From Chloroflexota bacterium (lineage in GTDB: Bacteria; Chloroflexota; Dehalococcoidia; GIF9; UBA5629), in assembly GCA_016865855.1 (NCBI GenBank), contig VGNX01000005.1:165-64164 (forward strand): DNA of 64,000 nucleotides, given 5' to 3'. The notes beneath the pieces are model-generated. The model saw only the letters and a list, made by a program, of their open reading frames with translations, was not told the DNA's origin and did no database searches. How positions within the stretch are numbered: position 1 is the stretch's first letter; each line of letters opens with the position of its first letter. A program made the position numbers and the translations under genes. Below, one piece after another: positions 237-9,095 of this stretch.

Positions 237-265
237 TTGATAAACGGGGCAGGCAAAGGTAAAAT
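237..265 (+). promoter_or_regulatory. sigma70-type promoter of GT4 gene 1
   Basis: TTGATA-17 bp-TAAAAT; the same architecture recurs upstream of the paralog at 1631-1659. Confidence 0.6.
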
Positions 266-322: not shown

Positions 323-1573
323 ATGCGTGTCTGCTTGATTAGCTACCGAAGCTATCGCTATTCCGGCGGACAGGGTATTTACCTTCGCTACCTGAGCCGT
401 TCCCTCCGTGACCTCGGTCACGAGGTTGATGTGGTATCAGGGCCACCATATCCGGATTTGGACGACGGGATAAGGCTGATTAAATTGCCGAGCCTCGACC
501 TGTATTCAATGTCATCCGTCCAGCGATTATTCATAGATCCACGTAAATTGAATACGTTCCCCAGTTTGGCCGAATGGCTCGGTACCATAAGCGGTTACTT
601 TTCAGAACCCCTGGCCTTTGGCATGCGAGCGTATGATTTAATACGTAATAGTGAAAACAACAAATACGACATTGTTCATGACAATCAAACCCTCGCATAT
701 GGTGTACTCAAGATCCAGGAACTCGGGTACCCGGTCGTTGAGACTATTCATCATCCTGTAACCATTGACCGTGATTTAGCCGTTAAGTCAGCAACATCCT
801 TGAAAGATAAGCTGGGGCTGAGAAGGTGGTTTTCCTTTATCAACATGCAAATTAAAGTCGCTCGCAAGCTTCCCCATATCATTACAGTTTCTCAGACTGC
901 CAGCCGACACATCACTGATACTTTCGGAATATCTGAAGACAAACTGCGGGTGATATACAATGGGATTGACACCGATATTTTCAGCCCTTCTCCTAAGGTG
1001 AACCGCCTAGGAAACAGGCTCCTGGTAGTAATAAGCAGAGACACGGCTGTTAAAGGGCTGAGATACATGCTGGAAGCATTGGCAATATTGCGGCAGAAGC
1101 ACAATCTTGAACTAATAGTGGTGGCAAAAGAAACAGATAATATCACAACACAGAAACTTATTAGTAATCTTGGTATAAGAGATTATGTAAAGTTTATTGA
1201 TGAGATAGATACTGATGAACTTGTAAACCAGTACAGGTTAGCTAGCGTTGTAGTCATTCCATCAATATACGAGGGTTTCGGCTTACCCGCTGCTGAGGCC
1301 ATGGCTTGCGGAGTTCCAGTAGTCTCCACAACTGCCGGGGCTTTGCCTGAGGTAGTAGGAGATGCCGGAATACTGGTGCCTTCTGCTGACACAAAGGCTT
1401 TAGCAGAAGCGATTTCGGCACTTGTGGTTAGCCCGAATAAACGTAACCATCTCAGCAGAATTGGGCGCAAAAGGATCGTGCAAATGTTTAACTGGCGAAA
1501 TACAGCCCAGCGCACTGTCGATGTCTACGCTGAGGCAATCGAATGCCAGAAATACTCAAATCGCACTGGATAG
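323..1573 (+). CDS. GT4 glycosyltransferase, ManT-like (MMP alpha-1,4-mannosyltransferase family), copy 1
   Basis: SYRS..SGGQGIY.RYLSR.L..LGH N-terminus, VHDNQ.L, TIHHP.T.D and the GT4 PS.YEGFGLPAAEAM motif; resembles mycobacterial ManT. Confidence 0.85.
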   Translation: MRVCLISYRSYRYSGGQGIYLRYLSRSLRDLGHEVDVVSGPPYPDLDDGIRLIKLPSLDLYSMSSVQRLFIDPRKLNTFPSLAEWLGTISGYFSEPLAFGMRAYDLIRNSENNKYDIVHDNQTLAYGVLKIQELGYPVVETIHHPVTIDRDLAVKSATSLKDKLGLRRWFSFINMQIKVARKLPHIITVSQTASRHITDTFGISEDKLRVIYNGIDTDIFSPSPKVNRLGNRLLVVISRDTAVKGLRYMLEALAILRQKHNLELIVVAKETDNITTQKLISNLGIRDYVKFIDEIDTDELVNQYRLASVVVIPSIYEGFGLPAAEAMACGVPVVSTTAGALPEVVGDAGILVPSADTKALAEAISALVVSPNKRNHLSRIGRKRIVQMFNWRNTAQRTVDVYAEAIECQKYSNRTG

Positions 1574-1630
1574 TTATGCTTATTTGAATCCCTAAAAAAA
1601 TTTTTCGCCCGCTATTTCCTACTAAACCTA

Positions 1631-1659
1631 TTGATATATCTATTAAACAAAGGTAAAAT
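1631..1659 (+). promoter_or_regulatory. sigma70-type promoter of GT4 gene 2
   Basis: TTGATA-17 bp-TAAAAT, with CAAAGG before the -10 box as in the copy at 237-265. Confidence 0.6.
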
Positions 1660-1716
1660 GGTTCGGGGCTTTTGTGCTTTTTGGTCTAAGTACCTGACGT
1701 TTGGGCGGATTATCAA

Positions 1717-2967
1717 GTGCGTATATGTTTGCTTAGTTATAGATGCTATCGCTATTCCGGCGGGCAAGGTATTTATATCCGCTACTTAAGCCGTTCCCTT
1801 CGCGAGCTCGGCCACGATGTTGAAGTAATATCAGGACCGCCATATCCAGAGCTGGATAATGGGATAAAGCTCATTAAGCTGCCCAGCCTCGATCTATACT
1901 CTCTGCCGGAAAGGCAACGCTTCCTTATAAATCCTCGAAAAGTGAATTCGCTGCCCAATTTCATTGAATGGCTCGGCGTCTGTTGTGGGTTTCTCACCGA
2001 GCCATTGACTTTCGGCATGCGCGCCTACAGTTTCCTGCACAGCAATAATCGGTATAAAAAATATGATGTTATTCACGACAATCAAAGTCTGTCATACAGC
2101 ATCCTGAAAATAAAGGAGCTCGGTATCCCCGTGGTAACAACCATTCATCATCCTATTACCATCGATCGAGACTTAGCCATCAAAGCAGCTAGGTCATTAT
2201 GGCAAGAAATGGGCATCAGGAGATGGTATTCGTTCGCCAATATGCAACTTAACGTTGCCAAGAAGCTTTCACATTTTATTACCGGTTCACAGAATTCCTA
2301 TCGTCAGATCATCGACATTTTCAAGTTGCCAAAAGATAGCCTCCGAGTTATTTACGATGGAGTTGATAGCTCCGTCTTCACTCGGGTTCCTGAAGTTGGA
2401 CGCTCAGAAAACCGCCTGCTCGTGATAAACAGCGGAGATACTCCTCTGAAGGGATTGAAATATTTGCTGGAAGCCGTTGCTGCTTTGCGCTCAGAACGGA
2501 AGATAGAGCTTGTGATAGTGGGAAAGCCAATGAAAAATGGCTACACGCAAGGACTGGTTGACTGTTTAGGCATTGATGATTGTGTTACCCATGTTGGGCA
2601 GATAGATACAGCCGAGCTTGTTAACCAATATTCGCTGGCCACAATGGTAGTTGTGCCATCCGTTTACGAAGGCTTTGGGCTACCGGCTGCTGAAGCTATG
2701 TGCTGTAGCACTCCCGTAATTTCAACGACCGCTGGAGCTCTACCTGAGATTGTCGGCGATGCCGGCATACTGGTATCTCCAGCCGATACCAGAGCGCTGG
2801 TCGAGGCAATTGCCGGCCTGCTGGATAATCCGGACAGGCGTAGGCACCTCGGTGAAATAGGACGTAGACGAGTAATGGACATGTTTAACTGGAAAAACAC
2901 CGCTAAAGAAACAGCCGACGTCTACAGGGAAGCTATCGAGTACCAAAATGATTTTGAAGCACGATGA
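1717..2967 (+). CDS. GT4 glycosyltransferase, ManT-like, copy 2 (tandem paralog)
   Basis: Same length (416 aa) and same motifs as 323..1573; GTG start. Confidence 0.85.
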   Translation: MRICLLSYRCYRYSGGQGIYIRYLSRSLRELGHDVEVISGPPYPELDNGIKLIKLPSLDLYSLPERQRFLINPRKVNSLPNFIEWLGVCCGFLTEPLTFGMRAYSFLHSNNRYKKYDVIHDNQSLSYSILKIKELGIPVVTTIHHPITIDRDLAIKAARSLWQEMGIRRWYSFANMQLNVAKKLSHFITGSQNSYRQIIDIFKLPKDSLRVIYDGVDSSVFTRVPEVGRSENRLLVINSGDTPLKGLKYLLEAVAALRSERKIELVIVGKPMKNGYTQGLVDCLGIDDCVTHVGQIDTAELVNQYSLATMVVVPSVYEGFGLPAAEAMCCSTPVISTTAGALPEIVGDAGILVSPADTRALVEAIAGLLDNPDRRRHLGEIGRRRVMDMFNWKNTAKETADVYREAIEYQNDFEAR

Positions 2968-4028
2968 GATATTTGCCTAAGGAGCGGTTCAAAATGAAAC
3001 TGAAGCTCTATGATGATTTCATCTCGAAAAAATACCTTGACCCCACAGTCAATTCCATCGTTGCCATGCAACAGACAGACGGTTCAATCCCCTGGCTTCA
3101 AGGAGGTATTACAGACCCGTGGACTCACGTTGAAAATGCTATGGCGATAGATATCGGCAATTGTCATGCCGAAGCCGAACGTGCCTATAACTGGCTCGCC
3201 GCCATTCAACTGGAGGACGGGAGCTGGTATGCTTCATACAAAGACGGACAACCACTGGATACATCCAAACTCTCACATGTCATTTCTTATATCGCAGTAG
3301 GAGTCTGGCACCATTACCTGACAACCGGTGACTCTTCTTTTCTCAAAAAAATGTGGCCCACTGTCCGGACTGCAATCGACTTTGCATTAAACATGAGAGG
3401 GCCTAACGGTGAAATCTACTGGGCTAGAGACAGTGCCGGCATTATCTACCCGAACGCATTGATAAGCAGTTGTAGTTCGACCTACTTGAGCATCAAGAGC
3501 GCGCTTTCTGTTGCTTCAGTTTTAGGGGAAGAAAGAACTGACTGGAGAGAGGCAAATGTCACTCTGGCAAAAGCAATTCAAAGAATGCCATGCCTGTTTG
3601 ATTCACCCCAAGAAAACAAATCTACATTTGCCATGGACTGGTATTATCCAGCAATGTGCTGTGTTATCAACGGTAACGAGGCAAGGCAGCGCCTGTTCAG
3701 TGGTTGGGATAAATTTGTTATCGACGGTCTGGGCTCACTCTGTAGTTTAGAACAGGAATGGGTCACCGCTGCAGAGACGAGTGAGCTAGCCATTGCCCTG
3801 GCAGTTCACGGTGAATATGAACACTCAGCTACTGTCTTCAACTGGATTCACCAGATGCGTGATGATGACGGTGCTTACTGGTATGGCATGGCACTGCCAA
3901 AGAAAGAGATCTGGCCAGAAGAAAAGCCAACATGGACATCAGCAGCAGTGGTGCTAGCAGCTGATATGCTCAGACCTATGTCTCCGACAAGCCTGCTTCT
4001 TGACCACCATGGGCAGATGACGCCGTAG
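2964..4028 (+). CDS. MmpH-like (alpha/alpha)6 glycoside hydrolase (family often annotated as prenyltransferase/squalene oxidase repeat)
   Basis: Q..DGSIPW..GG.TDPW.HVENAMA, YIAVGVWHHYL.TGD, F.MDWYYP, WVT.AET.E and TWTSAAV.LA motifs; alternative start at ATG 2994 after AAGGAG. Confidence 0.75.
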   Translation: MRYLPKERFKMKLKLYDDFISKKYLDPTVNSIVAMQQTDGSIPWLQGGITDPWTHVENAMAIDIGNCHAEAERAYNWLAAIQLEDGSWYASYKDGQPLDTSKLSHVISYIAVGVWHHYLTTGDSSFLKKMWPTVRTAIDFALNMRGPNGEIYWARDSAGIIYPNALISSCSSTYLSIKSALSVASVLGEERTDWREANVTLAKAIQRMPCLFDSPQENKSTFAMDWYYPAMCCVINGNEARQRLFSGWDKFVIDGLGSLCSLEQEWVTAAETSELAIALAVHGEYEHSATVFNWIHQMRDDDGAYWYGMALPKKEIWPEEKPTWTSAAVVLAADMLRPMSPTSLLLDHHGQMTP

Positions 4029-4637
4029 CACCCCGAGTGTATTGGTCATTGGTAATGCCTCAAATAACCCTGAGGCTAGCACTTGCTTATAGACCTCGTA
4101 AGGAGCTTGACCGCCCTTAGACGGGTCTAAAAAGATATCGTGGAAGACGAGGAACCCGCCAGGAAGCAGATGGGGATGCCAGCACTGATAATCTGCCATA
4201 ACTGTTTCATAGCTATGGCCACCATCTATGAAAACCAAGCCCAGGGGAGTAGCCCAATCTCGAGCTGCCACGTGTGATTTGGTAATCATAGGCACAACAA
4301 CTTCTTCTAACCCGGCTTTTTGTATTGTATCTCTAAAGCACGGGAAACTATCAATTAGACCGGTTCTGCTATCTAAAAGGTCAGAATCAAAGTATGTTTG
4401 CCCCGGTTGCTGCTCTTCAGAACCTCGATGGTGGTCAATAGTAAAAAGCGTTCGCCCCTGTCTCTTGCAGGCTATGCCAAGATAGACTGTGGATTTTCCG
4501 CAAAAGCTTCCAATCTCAAGACATGGCCCAAGCGCACACGCCTCTGAGGCTAATTCGAATAACCTCATCCCCTCCTCCTCATCAAGGAACCCCTTGACTT
4601 CTGAGATAAAAGACGGGATCAGCTTTTTAATTTTCAT
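3954..4637 (-). CDS. Class I SAM-dependent O-methyltransferase (Methyltransf_24), MeT1-like
   Basis: EIGSFCGKST, DHHRGSEEQQPG, FIDGGH, HDIF.DP..GGQAP motifs, as in mycobacterial MMP 1-O-methyltransferase MeT1. Confidence 0.85.
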   Translation of the reverse strand: MKIKKLIPSFISEVKGFLDEEEGMRLFELASEACALGPCLEIGSFCGKSTVYLGIACKRQGRTLFTIDHHRGSEEQQPGQTYFDSDLLDSRTGLIDSFPCFRDTIQKAGLEEVVVPMITKSHVAARDWATPLGLVFIDGGHSYETVMADYQCWHPHLLPGGFLVFHDIFLDPSKGGQAPYEVYKQVLASGLFEALPMTNTLGVLRRHLPMVVKKQACRRHRSEHISC

Positions 4638-4857
4638 TTTAGCTTTTTATTCAGTATAGCACACTTCATGCGAACCCTACTGGTGGCTGGTAATCTCAAG
4701 CATAACAGTGTCCCCCGATGTGCGGGGCAAGCACAGAGCTTAATGCTGCGGTCTCAGTTTGTGATATACTAATGCCCACCCTCTATCATCTGCCAGTAAC
4801 TGGAAATCTCACCGTGCCGTTTAAGTGCTAAATTTCAAAAGTTTCATACTTTCAGTA

Positions 4858-4886
4858 TTGACAGAACTTACAAAAGCTGGTAAAGT
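4858..4886 (+). promoter_or_regulatory. sigma70 promoter of the GbsR/MarR-exporter operon, preceded and abutted by TTTCA repeats
   Basis: TTGACA-17 bp-TAAAGT with an extended TG; TTTCA repeats at ~4833-4854 may be the autoregulatory operator. Confidence 0.5.
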
Positions 4887-4911
4887 TGATTCTGTCATGC
4901 TGGAGACAACG

Positions 4912-5445
4912 GTGGATGAAACTGAACGCCAGATAATGCTAAAACGGCTGGTTGAAGATGTGGGTATAATCTTCGAAGACATGGCCTTGCCCCGTATGGC
5001 AGGGCGCATGCTAGGGTGGCTGTTAATATGCGATCCGCCGCACCAGTCGTCTGCCGAGCTTTGCGCAGCTATCGGGGGCAGCAAGGGATCCATCAGTTCT
5101 ATGGCGCGGCTGCTTATTCAGGCTGGACTGGTGGAACGGATGGGCGTCCCGGGAGACCGTATCATCTACTACCGCATCAAGCCCGGCGCCTGGTTTGAGC
5201 TGATGAGAAATAGAATAGCCCACCTCACAGTTATGCGCCGTCTGGCTGAGAGAGGGCTGGAGCTGATGGCAGGCCTGGATGCCCAGACTAAGAACCGCCT
5301 TGAGGAAATTCATGATTTCTATGCCTTTTTCGAACAGGAAATGCCGTTGCTGCTGGAGCGCTGGCAGCGGCAACGCAACGAAGCCGGGCTAAACCGGGAA
5401 TCAACTCAAACCGAACTACAGGAGACAGGGAGTGAGCTTAAATGA
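4912..5445 (+). CDS. GbsR/MarR-family transcriptional regulator
   Basis: E.VG..FE...LPRMAGR.LGWLL.CDPP.QS..EL...G.SKGSIS winged-helix signature; start moved to GTG 4912 after GGAGA (ATG 4897 is an alternative). Confidence 0.85.
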   Translation: MDETERQIMLKRLVEDVGIIFEDMALPRMAGRMLGWLLICDPPHQSSAELCAAIGGSKGSISSMARLLIQAGLVERMGVPGDRIIYYRIKPGAWFELMRNRIAHLTVMRRLAERGLELMAGLDAQTKNRLEEIHDFYAFFEQEMPLLLERWQRQRNEAGLNRESTQTELQETGSELK

Positions 5446-7142
5446 AGAATATACTTGTCTTAGCGGTTACCATTTTGCTGGTCATCTCGACACTGGGTCT
5501 TGCCGGTTGCCGCGGTAATTCCCAGGAAAGCCCGCAGGTAGTGGAGGTGCAGCGGGGCGATATCATTATTACCGTCCCGGCTGACGGCACTCTGGACATG
5601 CCCCACGAGGTCAAGTTACGCTTTGGCACTCCAGGCACAGTGAAACAAATATTCGTTGCCAAGGGGCAAAGAGTCACAGAGGGTACACTATTAGCCAAGC
5701 TGGATGACACGACTCAAAAGCTAGCCATAGCCTCAGCCCAGTATAATGTAGAATTAGCTATGAATGAACTGGTGGAAAAGATACACCCGGCGGTAATGGG
5801 CTACCCAAAAATGTATCCTGATACCAGCACTGTCCTTCGTGTGGAACAGGCTCAAGAGGAACTAGGGCGAGCACAAAAATTCCTCGAGCAAGGCAAATAT
5901 CAAGAGGCTGCAGCTGAACTACGTCTTGCTAAGCATGACCTTGAAGCAAGTTACAAAATGTTCAATGTTCCGGAAATAGCTATGTCTTTGCAGGGATATG
6001 ATGAGTTCCTAGGTGCACCGGTCGACAACTATCCTGATATCTCTAAGGCCATCAAGCTCCTAGAACAAGACCTGGCAAGATTGGCCGAAATACAAACGCT
6101 TATTGAGCAGGGTAGCTACGAGGATGGTAAGGCTAAATTGAATACCGCCCAATACAAGTTGAATGAAACTCATCAGCTGGTCAAAAGCCTGAGTGGCAGG
6201 ATAAGAGTATCACAAAGAATCGGCGAGTGCTGTCAACAACAAGCAGGACAAAGTGCAGAGACGTCAACCGGATTGATGCCACTGCCCTACCCTGATACCT
6301 CAACTTCCCTCGCTTGGCTGAGGCAGGTTGAAGAAACTCTACAAAAGATACAAGCGTGTAAAAAGGAGGAGAGTTGTGACGCACTGGAGCTGACCACACT
6401 GCTGCGCATGGCTCAGCATGATGTGGAAATGAGCCAGACAATACTCGAGGACAATGAACTGATTTTCAGGGGCGGCCTCAACCTGAAAGCTTTGAGGACT
6501 TATAACCTCAATCTGCAAATCGCCGAAGGAGACCTGAAGCGGTATAAGGAAGAGCTCATGAAAACAGAAATCCTGGCGCCTTTCGATGGCACCGTAGTTG
6601 ATATCGGCGTGAAGGAAAATGACCAGCTTTCCTCTTTCGACTATTCGTCCAAGACCGCCGTTCACCTGGTTGACACCAGCACAGTTGAGATGGATGGGGT
6701 AGTGGATGAGATAGATATTTACAAAGTCAAAGTGGGCCAGAAAGCTATTGTAATCGTGGATGCCCTGCCCGATGTAGAGCTGAAAGGCAAGGTAACCTTC
6801 ATCTCACCTTTTGGCACAAGGGAAACCGGCGTCGTCGAGTTCCCAGTTACTATTTTCCTGGAACCCACTGAAATAGAGCTTAAAGGAGGTTTAACCGCCA
6901 CCGCTGATGTTATAGTCGAAGAACACAAAAACATCATAATGGTACCTAACAGAGCGATTAAAGGCTCTCCGGGAGACTACTGGGTGGAAGTGGTGATAGA
7001 TGAGAAGAAAGTGTCAACTGAAAAAAGACCGGTTGTCTTGGGTGCTCAGAACGACCAATTCAGCGAGGTAATCTCCGGGCTCAGTGAAGGGGAAAGGATT
7101 ATTGTCGAGGCAACCCGCAGTCGAGTGCCTACATCCTTCTGA
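5442..7142 (+). CDS. Efflux membrane-fusion/periplasmic adaptor lipoprotein (MacA/YknX-like) with a long helical insertion
   Basis: Lipobox LAGC; lipoyl halves (G.V..I.V..GQ.V..G.LL..LD and I.APFDGTV); beta-barrel VDEIDI..VKVGQ; C-terminal EVISGLSEGE. Confidence 0.85.
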   Translation: MKNILVLAVTILLVISTLGLAGCRGNSQESPQVVEVQRGDIIITVPADGTLDMPHEVKLRFGTPGTVKQIFVAKGQRVTEGTLLAKLDDTTQKLAIASAQYNVELAMNELVEKIHPAVMGYPKMYPDTSTVLRVEQAQEELGRAQKFLEQGKYQEAAAELRLAKHDLEASYKMFNVPEIAMSLQGYDEFLGAPVDNYPDISKAIKLLEQDLARLAEIQTLIEQGSYEDGKAKLNTAQYKLNETHQLVKSLSGRIRVSQRIGECCQQQAGQSAETSTGLMPLPYPDTSTSLAWLRQVEETLQKIQACKKEESCDALELTTLLRMAQHDVEMSQTILEDNELIFRGGLNLKALRTYNLNLQIAEGDLKRYKEELMKTEILAPFDGTVVDIGVKENDQLSSFDYSSKTAVHLVDTSTVEMDGVVDEIDIYKVKVGQKAIVIVDALPDVELKGKVTFISPFGTRETGVVEFPVTIFLEPTEIELKGGLTATADVIVEEHKNIIMVPNRAIKGSPGDYWVEVVIDEKKVSTEKRPVVLGAQNDQFSEVISGLSEGERIIVEATRSRVPTSF

Positions 7143-7194
7143 GAACAACCAGCGATTCAAATGATATAGCATTACTTTGCTACCTGTAACAGCA

Positions 7195-7863
7195 ATGATT
7201 GACCTGGAAAACATAGTAAAAATCTATAAGCTGGGAGACGTCGAGGTTACTGCCCTTGATGGAGTAACCTGTTGCATCGAGACAGGAGAGATGGTCTCGA
7301 TTATGGGACCATCAGGCTCAGGAAAATCTACCTTACTGAATCTCATCGGCTGTCTGGACAGACCAACTTCAGGAAGATACGAACTAGATGGCACAGACGT
7401 CAGCCGTTTAAATGATGACCAACTGGCTGAGATAAGGAATAAGAAAATAGGCTTCGTTTTTCAGTCTTTCAACCTGCTGCCACGAACCACAGCCGTAGCC
7501 AATGTAGAGTTACCGCTAGTCTATAGTGGTGCCAGTAATAAACGCCAGCGTGCTTTTGAAGCCCTAGAATCAGTGGGCATGGCCAATCGTGCCCACCACC
7601 GCCCTACTGAGATCTCCGGCGGCGAGCAGCAGCGGGTAGCTATGGCCCGAGCCTTAGTCAACAACCCATCCCTTATTCTAGGTGATGAACCCACCGGTAA
7701 TCTGGATACACAGACAAGCAAAGGCATTATGCTGCTTTTGCAGCGACTCAATAGCCAGGGTATCACTATTGTCCTCGTCACCCACGAAGAGGACATCGCT
7801 GCCTACACACGGCGCACGATTTATCTTAGAGATGGTAAAATTGTTAGTGAGAGGAAAAGATGA
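7195..7863 (+). CDS. ABC transporter ATP-binding protein (MacB/LolD type)
   Basis: Walker A GPSGSGKST, signature ISGGEQQR, Walker B ILGDEPTGNLD, VTH switch; start at ATG 7195. Confidence 0.92.
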   Translation: MIDLENIVKIYKLGDVEVTALDGVTCCIETGEMVSIMGPSGSGKSTLLNLIGCLDRPTSGRYELDGTDVSRLNDDQLAEIRNKKIGFVFQSFNLLPRTTAVANVELPLVYSGASNKRQRAFEALESVGMANRAHHRPTEISGGEQQRVAMARALVNNPSLILGDEPTGNLDTQTSKGIMLLLQRLNSQGITIVLVTHEEDIAAYTRRTIYLRDGKIVSERKR

Positions 7864-9095
7864 ACCTCTGGGAAAGCATTATCAGTTCATGGCAAGTCCT
7901 ACACACTAACAAGATGCGGTCTAGCCTGACCATACTTGGCATCGTAATCGGCGTCAGTGCCGTCGTCTTCCTGGTGTCCTTCGGCAGAGGGCATGAAGCC
8001 AACATTACTGGCATCTTTGAGAGCATGGGCGCTAACGCCATCTACATCACCAGCGCAACAAGCATGACGCAAGGAATTTCTGGAGCCACAGCCAGTATCA
8101 CTCTCGAAGATGCCGAGGCTCTAGCTAATCCCAACCGTGCCCCATCTGTAGCCTTGGTTGCCCCCATGACTGAAAAACTGGCCAAGGTCGTCTATGGCAA
8201 TGAAAATGCTACCGTTAACATCATGGGTGCCACTCCCGACATTGCACAAATCATTAGCTACCCCGTAGCTGAAGGGGAGTTCATTTCTGAGCAGGATGTC
8301 AAGAGAGGAGCCAGAGTCGCCGTACTTGGGAGCAAGACAGCCACGGACCTTTTCGGCACTGAAGACCCTATAGGTAAAACCATCAGGGTAAGCGGCACCC
8401 AGTTCGAGGTTATCGGTGTCCTCGAAAAGAAAGGCGGCTTCATAGGCTCCGCAGATGATTTCGTCCTCATCCCCCTGACCACAATGCAGTCGAGACTCCT
8501 GGGAGAGACATCTGCTAGGGGGCGGCCCATCCAGACTATCGCTGTCAAAGCAGTGAGCACCGACCAAATAGATGCCGCCAAAGAGGAGGTTACCTCTATC
8601 CTGCGGCAGCGCCATAACATCAGAGAAGGAAAAGATGACGATTTTACCATCATCGATATGCAAGAAATACTCAGCAGTATGCGTGAGGTGCTCGGCATAA
8701 TGCAGGTATTCCTGGGCAGTGTTGGAGCTATTTCCCTCCTTGTCGGTGGCATCGGCATCATGAACATAATGCTGGTCTCAGTGACTGAACGCACACGGGA
8801 AATCGGCATCCGAAAAGCCGTGGGTGCCAAACGCCGGGATATTCTACGTCAGTTCCTGGTTGAGGCCTCAATGCTTAGTCTGACTGGTGGGATAATCGGC
8901 CTTACTATAGCTGCGCTGGGAACCTGGGCGATTACTGGCGTACAACTTGGACCGTACCCCGTCAAAGCCCCAATGTCACCTGACATCGTAATTATTGCCA
9001 TCTCAGTGGCAGTCTTTGTAGGGCTAGCTTCTGGCATTTACCCCGCCTACAGAGCTGCTGGACTTGACCCAATTGAATCACTACGCCATGAATAA
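7860..9095 (+). CDS. ABC transporter permease (MacB/FtsX type)
   Basis: RS.LT.LGIVIGV, GGIGIMNIMLVSVTERTREIGIRKAVGA, YPA.RAA.LDPIESLR.E. Confidence 0.92.
   Translation: MNLWESIISSWQVLHTNKMRSSLTILGIVIGVSAVVFLVSFGRGHEANITGIFESMGANAIYITSATSMTQGISGATASITLEDAEALANPNRAPSVALVAPMTEKLAKVVYGNENATVNIMGATPDIAQIISYPVAEGEFISEQDVKRGARVAVLGSKTATDLFGTEDPIGKTIRVSGTQFEVIGVLEKKGGFIGSADDFVLIPLTTMQSRLLGETSARGRPIQTIAVKAVSTDQIDAAKEEVTSILRQRHNIREGKDDDFTIIDMQEILSSMREVLGIMQVFLGSVGAISLLVGGIGIMNIMLVSVTERTREIGIRKAVGAKRRDILRQFLVEASMLSLTGGIIGLTIAALGTWAITGVQLGPYPVKAPMSPDIVIIAISVAVFVGLASGIYPAYRAAGLDPIESLRHE

Follow-up and report, generated by a model that had tools for sequence, protein, structure and literature searches.

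The window analysed here, 64,000 nucleotides of contig VGNX01000005.1 from a Chloroflexota genome of the class Dehalococcoidia, carries near its start a cluster of genes related to those that make and recycle 3-O-methylmannose polysaccharide (MMP) in mycobacteria. Mycobacterial MMP is a chain of 11–14 α-1,4-linked 3-O-methylmannose units with a 1-O-methyl cap. The cluster (Table 1) encodes two tandem paralogues of the mannosyltransferase ManT, a homologue of the hydrolase MmpH and, convergent to the latter, a homologue of the methyltransferase MeT1. An orthologue of the remaining enzyme, the putative methyltransferase pMeT3, is found on another contig. Judged by orthology, the genome holds all four MMP functions, with pMeT3 unlinked from the other three. 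This appears to be a new form of the pathway, a Dehalococcoidia MMP-type pathway with a duplicated ManT, a detached pMeT3 and an altered MmpH subsite. An earlier, sequence-only reading of this DNA had recognised MMP-type enzymes in a non-actinobacterial host, and both parts of that claim hold. It did not notice, however, that the MeT1 homologue is the counterpart of the 1-O capping enzyme; the cluster is no isolated case, and the argument from the neighbouring acyl-CoA genes is weak.

The MMP-type enzymes

Protein identities were established with phmmer against all sequences of the Protein Data Bank (PDB) and with scans of Pfam and NCBIfam. ManT paralogue a matches PDB entry 7QSG over residues 1–406 with an E-value of 3.5e-99 (next match 8.3e-25), and the hydrolase matches 7QSJ over residues 27–342 of 354 at 2e-79 (next match 0.0087). 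These two structures are the ManT and the MmpH of Mycobacterium hassiacum, respectively (PMC9883506). Both glycosyltransferases contain the Pfam domains Glyco_transf_4 (PF13439) and Glycos_transf_1 (PF00534) and have the two-domain GT-B architecture of family GT4; paralogue b is identical to paralogue a at 253 of 410 positions (62%, BLASTP). The methyltransferase matches 6G7D at 5.4e-53 (next match 0.015) and the Pfam family Methyltransf_24 (PF13578) at 4.4e-25. We take 6G7D, as well as 6G80 and 6H40, to be M. hassiacum MeT1. In all three protein types the best PDB match is separated from the next by at least 50 orders of magnitude, so that these matches are of orthologue grade and lie far beyond chance. 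The four open reading frames are exactly where the sequence-only reading had placed them, within 323–4637, and all motifs that it quoted are present in the translations: SGGQGIY, VHDNQ (IHDNQ in paralogue b) and HHPxTID in the glycosyltransferases, and TDPWTHVE, MDWYYP, WVTAAETSE, EIGSFCGKST, DHHRGSEEQQPG and GGQAP in the other translations. None of the four proteins scores above a family cut-off in NCBIfam, so curated annotation misses them; the NCBI names of their relatives are 'phenyltransferase domain-containing protein' or hypothetical.

The start of the hydrolase gene overlaps the stop of ManT b by 4 nt, and the 3′ ends of the convergent hydrolase and methyltransferase genes share 75 nt. 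Most MmpH relatives are 343–344 residues long, compared with 354 in the window, so the true start of the hydrolase may be the ATG at 2994.

Table 1. Genes of the MMP-type cluster and promoter-like sites in the window
Feature	Position	Strand	Size, basis
Promoter-like site TTGATA-17-TAAAAT, upstream of ManT a	237–265	+	consensus scan, 10/12 matches
ManT paralogue a (GT4, GT-B fold; putative α-1,4-mannosyltransferase)	323–1573	+	416 aa; PDB and Pfam matches
Promoter-like site TTGATA-17-TAAAAT, upstream of ManT b	1631–1659	+	consensus scan; composite motif
ManT paralogue b (GT4)	1717–2967	+	416 aa; BLASTP to paralogue a, Pfam
MmpH homologue, (α/α)6 endo-mannosidase-like hydrolase, variant subsite	2964–4028	+	354 aa; PDB match
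MeT1 homologue, putative 1-O-methyltransferase capping the reducing end	3954–4637	-	227 aa; PDB match and Pfam PF13578

For comparison, the gene architecture of the window was set beside that of the best 80 of at least 600 MmpH-bearing loci (genes called by blastp at E < 1e-20 with 60% or more of the query covered), which gives 81 loci, several of them cut by the end of the contig.

Residues Gly15, His142, Lys240, Glu313, Gly314, Phe315, Leu317 and Glu321 are tied to catalysis or donor binding in ManT (PMC9883506). Both window copies keep the equivalents of all of these, and so do all 12 Dehalococcoidia copies, except that Leu317 is kept in 11 of the 12. Gly15, His142, Lys240, Glu313 and Glu321 are present in every a-copy (6/6), every b-copy (6/6) and every other ManT homologue compared (55/55). 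Only six positions show fixed differences between the a- and b-copies, mostly conservative ones, and neither copy looks degenerate. The tree of ManT places the a-copies and the b-copies as sister groups within one Dehalococcoidia clade (support 100), which indicates a single ManT duplication at the base of the window's family.

The window MmpH keeps Asp47, Trp49, Met215, Tyr219, Glu262, Glu265 and Trp315 of the M. hassiacum enzyme (Asp51, Trp53, Met224, Tyr228, Glu271, Glu274 and Trp324 in its own numbering). Glu262 is the catalytic base of MmpH, and Asp47 is a candidate for its acid (PMC9883506). The changes are Asp50 to Thr (Thr54 in the window protein), Asn101 to His (His105), Phe102 to Val (Val106) and Thr163 to Ser. 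In M. hassiacum, Asp50 is the second acid candidate and the D50A variant is nearly inactive, while Asn101 contacts a glycerol molecule that stands in for a sugar at the neighbouring subsite (PMC9883506). Thr50 and His101 occur together in 6/6 members of the clade with two ManT genes; elsewhere position 50 is Asp in 71/75 sequences and position 101 is Asn in 75/75. The same pair is present in 7/7 genomes of the family in a sample from a genome collection, some of which may be the same as loci L002–L006. As all carriers are kin, this pattern represents one evolutionary event and is not a statistical association. The window hydrolase is best regarded as an orthologue within the MmpH family whose subsite is variant, and identical specificity is not claimed for it. 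Given that residue 47 is always Asp or Glu in the window's family while Asp50 has been replaced by Thr, the alignment speaks for residue 47 as the catalytic acid, a choice that PMC9883506 had left undecided.

Within the family, position 47 is Glu in four of the seven genomes (L093–L096, from G013, G097, G266 and G182), and position 50 is Thr in all seven.

GH15 glucodextranase and the GH125 exo-α-1,6-mannosidases are structural neighbours of MmpH (PMC9883506), with which they share the (α/α)6 barrel and a Glu as the catalytic base. The likeness of the window hydrolase to these families is marginal: Pfam gives only sub-threshold matches to six-hairpin glycosidases (E-value of 1e-3), and the weak NCBIfam match to 'oligosaccharide amylase' (TIGR01577) scores 54 bits against a cut-off of 821. 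Membership in GH15 or GH125 was hence rejected in favour of MmpH orthology.

The assignment of MeT1 has independent support from synteny, as the gene neighbours MmpH both in M. hassiacum and in 52 of the 81 loci. In these it is located downstream of MmpH on the opposite strand, mostly adjoining it and about 3 kb away in 12. The window protein keeps 43 of the 44 columns that are at least 95% conserved in 51 syntenic homologues, the one change being Ala to Val. In mycobacteria, MeT1 caps the reducing end (1-O), and pMeT3 is thought to add the 3-O-methyl groups of MMP (PMC9883506). The match to a MeT1-type enzyme made by the sequence-only reading is correct, but the enzyme in the cluster would be the 1-O capping one, and the candidate for 3-O-methylation is the pMeT3 orthologue on contig C3.

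In other lineages, a 0.7-kb gap between ManT and MmpH encodes this class-I methyltransferase of about 240 residues. A search of the window's genome (G000) with such a protein from locus L010 (L010:7295-8020) finds an intact open reading frame of 242 residues at G000:C3:25541-26245, which matches over residues 7–240 at 1.1e-57 (next paralogue 8.4e-13). When this protein is used in turn as the query, the cluster-linked pMeT3 is the genome-wide best match in 4/4 genomes (a Syntrophaceae metagenome-assembled genome (MAG), Seongchinamella, Pseudomaricurvus and Streptomyces glaucosporus). The orthologue keeps 41 of 46 conserved columns; among the changes are P177F and W180I in the conserved C-terminal motif HALHxPYWW. 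On contig C3, coaD (phosphopantetheine adenylyltransferase) lies upstream of it, and an unrelated class-I methyltransferase of 312 residues (L082:2371-3309) is convergent to it; both were named from their translations.

A family-wide variant of a widespread cluster

The MmpH homologue is present in at least 600 species genomes, and all 600 listed candidates were confirmed as MmpH relatives. A synteny survey across Chloroflexota and other anaerobes had been suggested by the sequence-only reading. The 81 loci compared here show the canonical order (ManT, pMeT3 and MmpH on one strand followed by MeT1 on the other) in 44 and the same order without MeT1 in 11 more; 16 loci have MmpH alone and four have truncated forms. 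Two ManT genes followed by MmpH and an oppositely oriented MeT1 are found in five loci (the window and L003–L006), and L002 is the one locus in which the same set is preceded by pMeT3. Grouped by their labels and NCBI rank, the best 80 loci come from 33 Pseudomonadota, 27 Thermodesulfobacteriota, 7 Chloroflexota, 4 Actinomycetota, 4 'Deltaproteobacteria' (Myxococcota in NCBI) and 5 genomes labelled 'uncultured delta proteobacterium', a list that is biased towards a Dehalococcoidia-centred query, in which Actinobacteria are under-represented and from which relative abundance cannot be read. Most of the Pseudomonadota belong to Halieaceae and Cellvibrionales, with two cultured isolates among them.

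Judged by gene content and order, the canonical ManT–pMeT3–MmpH–MeT1 cluster is thus widespread outside Actinobacteria, in several phyla. The cluster of the window is not an isolated case. The published survey is explicitly one of actinobacterial genomes (PMC9883506), and within the literature searched the broad non-actinobacterial spread of the cluster appears to have gone unremarked. Literature searches, which did not extend to the supplements of PMC9883506 or to the 2019 MeT1 paper, listed no work devoted to such genes or polymers in other phyla, in line with the earlier remark that no such polymer had been characterised there.

In the window's class, 32 of 301 sampled genomes (its own included) contain an MmpH homologue. 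Its own family has one in all seven sampled genomes, with 62–75% identity, compared with 40–47% for the matches from other families. Exactly two ManT copies stand beside MmpH in 5/5 family genomes tested, and the full four-function set is kept in all five, with one pMeT3 in each, about 40 kb away on the same contig in three genomes and on a different contig in the other two. In this family MmpH is directly preceded by the second ManT, not by pMeT3; only in L002 does pMeT3 lie directly upstream of the ManT pair. In four members of the class that belong to other families, MmpH directly follows pMeT3, as in the canonical order.

Two further arrangements were seen among the related loci. In L008–L013, L016–L018, L025, L055 and L066 (Syntrophaceae, Smithella and Desulfomonilia-type), MmpH and MeT1 are about 3 kb apart, and in L010 this gap (L010:8989-11365) encodes a hexapeptide-repeat acyltransferase and a B12-binding radical SAM enzyme. 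Such extra genes suggest an acylated or additionally methylated polymer, comparable to the acetylated MMP of Streptomyces griseus (PMC9883506). In 16 of the 80 related loci, mostly from Desulfobacteraceae or other Desulfobacterales, MmpH is present without ManT, pMeT3 or MeT1 in the available flank, some of the contigs being short (L015, L019, L026, L031, L042, L050, L053, L059–L061, L065, L072 and L076–L079). Such a solitary MmpH could serve to scavenge methylmannans from outside the cell or act on another substrate.

The window belongs to contig C5 of a 2.0-Mb Dehalococcoidia MAG of 84 contigs (91% complete, 5.1% contamination). The closest named relatives of its MmpH (60–94% identity) are from Chloroflexi or Dehalococcoidia MAGs, and the five most similar loci are labelled Dehalococcoidia, Dehalococcoidales and, in one case, 'Chloroflexia'. 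The genes downstream of the cluster, folE, a PALP enzyme and hom, are syntenic with a Dehalococcoidia MAG at 81–86% identity, and the GC content of the cluster, 0.46–0.47, is like that of the rest of the window. With this flanking synteny and uniform GC content, the cluster is native to the Dehalococcoidia lineage and the contig is not mis-binned. The non-actinobacterial host of the sequence-only reading is borne out by these relatives, by the flanking synteny and by the presence of the cluster throughout the family. Searches of the 91%-complete genome for COX1 of the haem-copper oxidases and for cytochrome bd subunit I gave no match, which, given that completeness, is consistent with an anaerobic host, as the sequence-only reading had supposed.

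Had the cluster recently been acquired from Actinobacteria, or had an actinobacterial contig been placed in the wrong bin, it would be uninformative on Dehalococcoidia. The family has been characterised only in Actinobacteria, the MAG has the contamination estimate given above, and the deep placement in the MmpH tree is unresolved, with a weak node (13) joining Chloroflexota and Actinomycetota. Yet the housekeeping genes on the flank and the GC content are those of the host, the variant cluster is present in 7/7 sampled family genomes, identity to actinobacterial homologues is only 40–44%, and the ManT tree joins Dehalococcoidia with Thermodesulfobacteriota (SH-aLRT 82) and places all four Actinomycetota in a different clade. 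This explanation is highly improbable. Both trees are quick, midpoint-rooted ones of the 80 loci nearest to a Dehalococcoidia-centred query, with four rows of under-sampled Actinomycetota, and with a support of 82 for the Thermodesulfobacteriota in ManT and of 13 for the MmpH node they leave the direction of transfer unsettled.

A soil Chloroflexi MAG (CF_28, L035) has the canonical ManT–pMeT3–MmpH–MeT1 cluster, and its ManT groups with Actinomycetota (support 100), not with Dehalococcoidia. Because these two ManT groups are separate, at least two versions of the cluster, each of its own origin, seem to exist in Chloroflexota.

Each ManT gene of the window is preceded by a promoter-like site (Table 1). 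The scan of the whole region for promoters and terminators is not enriched over shuffled sequence (7 found, 8.1 expected). The composite motif TTGATA-N(10-12)-AAAGGTAAAAT, however, occurs exactly twice in the 2.0-Mb genome, once before each ManT, and similar TTGATA-17-TAAAAT sites precede a ManT paralogue in L003, L005 and L006. If these are promoters, as their match to the consensus would imply, they hint at separate but similar transcriptional control of the two paralogues; it seems that the duplication carried its promoter along or that both copies share the same control.

Proposed pathway and its product

In mycobacteria, ManT, pMeT3, MeT1 and MmpH are described as parts of a recycling mechanism (PMC9883506). 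By analogy, the two ManT paralogues would extend α-1,4-linked mannose oligomers from GDP-mannose in the cytoplasm, the unlinked pMeT3 orthologue would O-methylate the added mannoses, and MeT1 would methylate the free 1-OH of the reducing end. The MmpH-type endo-hydrolase would then cut mature chains into oligomers that prime new ones, a 'partially conservative replication'. With moderate confidence we favour this reading, in which an intracellular MMP-like methylated mannan is made by hydrolase-primed recycling. The most likely product is an intracellular, neutral, methylated mannan; its sugar and linkage, the positions of its methyl groups, its place in the cell and any part in binding lipids or acyl-CoA are inferred. 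None of the five pathway proteins has a predicted transmembrane segment or a hydrophobic N-terminus, in a prediction where the MacB and HlyD controls are positive. In view of this, and because export and lipid-carrier genes are no part of the conserved cluster, the product probably stays in the cytoplasm. For the sugar donor, a candidate GDP-mannose pyrophosphorylase is present at G000:C6:15105-16115; its best NCBIfam match is mannose-1-phosphate guanylyltransferase (E-value of 1.5e-89), and mannose-1-phosphate guanylyltransferases are among its top PDB matches. A search of the genome with PF00483 finds four nucleotidyltransferases, one of which is this sub-threshold candidate.

Several points weigh against an MMP-like mannan. 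With Asp50 of MmpH replaced by Thr and Asn101, which contacts the ligand mimic, replaced by His, the substrate of the hydrolase may differ. The activity of pMeT3 is still putative in mycobacteria (PMC9883506), and in the window's genome its gene is unlinked, so that co-regulation is not secured. The equivalent of ManT Asp293, a proposed guanine contact that would confer GDP specificity (PMC9883506), is Thr in both window copies, which leaves the donor nucleotide unsecured. Position 293 is variable in canonical clusters too (Thr in 19/31 Pseudomonadota, Asp in only 7/19 delta-type sequences); because it varies across the whole ManT family, it is not discriminating. The candidate pyrophosphorylase scores 300 bits against an NCBIfam cut-off of 440, its top PDB match is labelled UTP-glucose-1-phosphate uridylyltransferase, and TIGR01479, the bifunctional guanylyltransferase/phosphomannose isomerase (GMP/PMI), has no match in the genome. 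Finally, MMP-like polymers are known only from Actinobacteria.

The same enzyme families might therefore make a chemically different product that is not MMP in the mycobacterial sense, for instance short capped (methyl)manno-oligosaccharides that serve as compatible solutes or storage, or a mannan of other methylation or linkage that results from two ManT specificities. This is a possible, though on balance unlikely, explanation. It would account for the correlated Thr50 and His101 of MmpH throughout the family, for the fixation of the ManT duplication, for the changes in the HALHxPYWW motif of pMeT3 and for the detachment of its gene. However, all catalytic residues are kept in both ManT copies, which differ consistently at only a few, mostly conservative, positions; MeT1 is conserved in all but one of its invariant-like columns, and its mycobacterial counterpart is specific for 3-O-methylated mannosides (PMC9883506); and the four-function set is retained by every family member tested. 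The MMP-like mannan is thus retained as the preferred product, with the qualification that its fine structure (chain length, methylation pattern or cleavage register) probably differs from that of mycobacterial MMP, since the remodelled hydrolase subsite, the ManT duplicate and the pMeT3 diverged in its C-terminal motif together suggest a modified polymer or cleavage register.

Directly after the cluster, at 4825–9095, come the gene of a MarR-like regulator, which is divergent from MeT1, and those of an HlyD-family adaptor, whose N-terminus resembles that of a lipoprotein, and of the ATPase and permease of a MacB-type ABC exporter. The exporter, without the MarR gene, also adjoins the cluster in L003 and L006. 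GT4 enzymes commonly build surface glycans, and the glycosyltransferases have matches to NCBIfam families of the exopolysaccharide (EPS) type, all far below cut-off. The cluster could hence be thought to make a glycan of the envelope or the cell exterior (EPS, S-layer or protein glycosylation) that is exported by the neighbouring HlyD/MacB system. Nevertheless, the cluster contains no flippase, polymerase, priming phosphoglycosyltransferase or lipid-carrier enzyme, the five pathway enzymes lack membrane segments and signal-like N-termini, and their closest characterised homologues act on a cytoplasmic polymer. As the exporter is adjacent in two close relatives only (0/78 other loci), its position reflects shared genome order and not a functional link. 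An exported glycan is accordingly improbable.

Farther downstream, beyond the exporter, folE, the PALP enzyme, hom and a peptidyl-prolyl isomerase (PPIase), a dense block of acyl-CoA metabolism genes occupies 15783–63846. It encodes five acyl-CoA dehydrogenases, one enoyl-CoA hydratase, two BKACE enzymes, three thiolase-like proteins with a ChsH2-type OB-fold partner (OB-fold/KAS-III-like), three AMP-forming ligases (one of 654 residues inside a Liv-type ABC operon), an acyl-CoA carboxylase pair (biotin carboxylase and carboxyltransferase), Liv-type ABC transporters, two short-chain dehydrogenases/reductases, an NMO-family protein and two 4Fe-4S proteins. The sequence-only reading had linked this block to the cluster. 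The genes are indeed there, but they start about 11 kb away, behind an efflux operon and housekeeping genes, and of the 80 related loci only 11 have an acyl-CoA-type gene within a flank of at most 8 kb (16 context queries; 13 loci have any match, two of them to HlyD/MacB only). Linkage to acyl-CoA genes was therefore rejected as evidence: synteny is not conserved, and the neighbourhood gives no support for a functional link.

Some carriers of the cluster are syntrophic oxidisers of fatty acids or alkanes, and one carries the species name hydrocarbonicus. The idea that the polymer buffers acyl-CoA is a hypothesis based on such lifestyles and on the role proposed for MMP in mycobacteria (PMC9883506). 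A bolder proposal is that polymethylated mannans are a widespread cytoplasmic 'lipid chaperone' of bacteria that process hydrophobic substrates, such as Syntrophaceae, Smithella, Halieaceae and Cellvibrionales and the acyl-CoA-rich Dehalococcoidia family, in which the extra ManT would prime chains de novo and the Thr50/His101 MmpH would set a different cleavage register. We put this forward only tentatively and consider it doubtful as a whole. For mycobacteria, de novo priming is still an unsolved step, and mono- or dimannosides cannot be extended by their ManT.

Comparison with known systems

The literature consulted treats MMP, ManT, MmpH and MeT1 as peculiar to mycobacteria or actinobacteria. 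If the clusters described here are functional, intracellular polymethylated polysaccharides exist in at least four more phyla, strict anaerobes included. Their role would then need rethinking, as strict anaerobes are not expected to have FAS-I, the proposed target of MMP. The cultured carriers Seongchinamella sediminis and Pseudomaricurvus hydrocarbonicus would make the question directly testable, the natural variation at residues 47 and 50 would inform the enzymology of MmpH, and the variant with two ManT genes would offer a route to the still unsolved start of MMP synthesis.

In M. hassiacum, the cluster consists of MHAS_04402 (ManT), MHAS_04403 (pMeT3), MHAS_04404 (MmpH) and MHAS_04405 (MeT1), and in M. 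smegmatis it is MSMEG_6481–6484 (PMC9883506). The window's genome shares with these all four enzyme types as clear orthologues, the relative order of ManT, MmpH and MeT1, the catalytic residues of ManT, Glu262 and Asp47 of MmpH and the predicted solubility of the proteins. Unlike them, it belongs to an apparently anaerobic Dehalococcoidia host, has two tandem ManT genes, each with its own promoter-like site, whose products are 62% identical, carries pMeT3 on another contig and not between ManT and MmpH, and has the four substitutions in MmpH (D50T, N101H, F102V and T163S).

Clusters of the Thermodesulfobacteriota (Syntrophaceae, Smithella and Desulfomonilia) and of the Gammaproteobacteria (Halieaceae and Cellvibrionales, e.g. 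S. sediminis, L046, and P. hydrocarbonicus, L048) are 41–53% identical to that of the window in ManT, MmpH and MeT1. They too have MeT1 downstream of MmpH on the opposite strand, and their proteins, like those of the window, are probably cytoplasmic. In contrast to the window, these clusters, which are known from their genes, have the mycobacterial order, one ManT and the Asp50/Asn101 subsite, and some Syntrophaceae-type loci have the additional hexapeptide acyltransferase and B12-radical SAM enzyme.

Clusters of the Streptomycetaceae (L081, L047 and L057) are 40–44% identical to that of the window and differ from it in their actinobacterial host, single ManT and canonical subsite. All three contain ManT, pMeT3 and MmpH, and a MeT1 homologue is found only in L081. 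The acetylated MMP of S. griseus implies that MMP-type polymers vary in their decoration between lineages.

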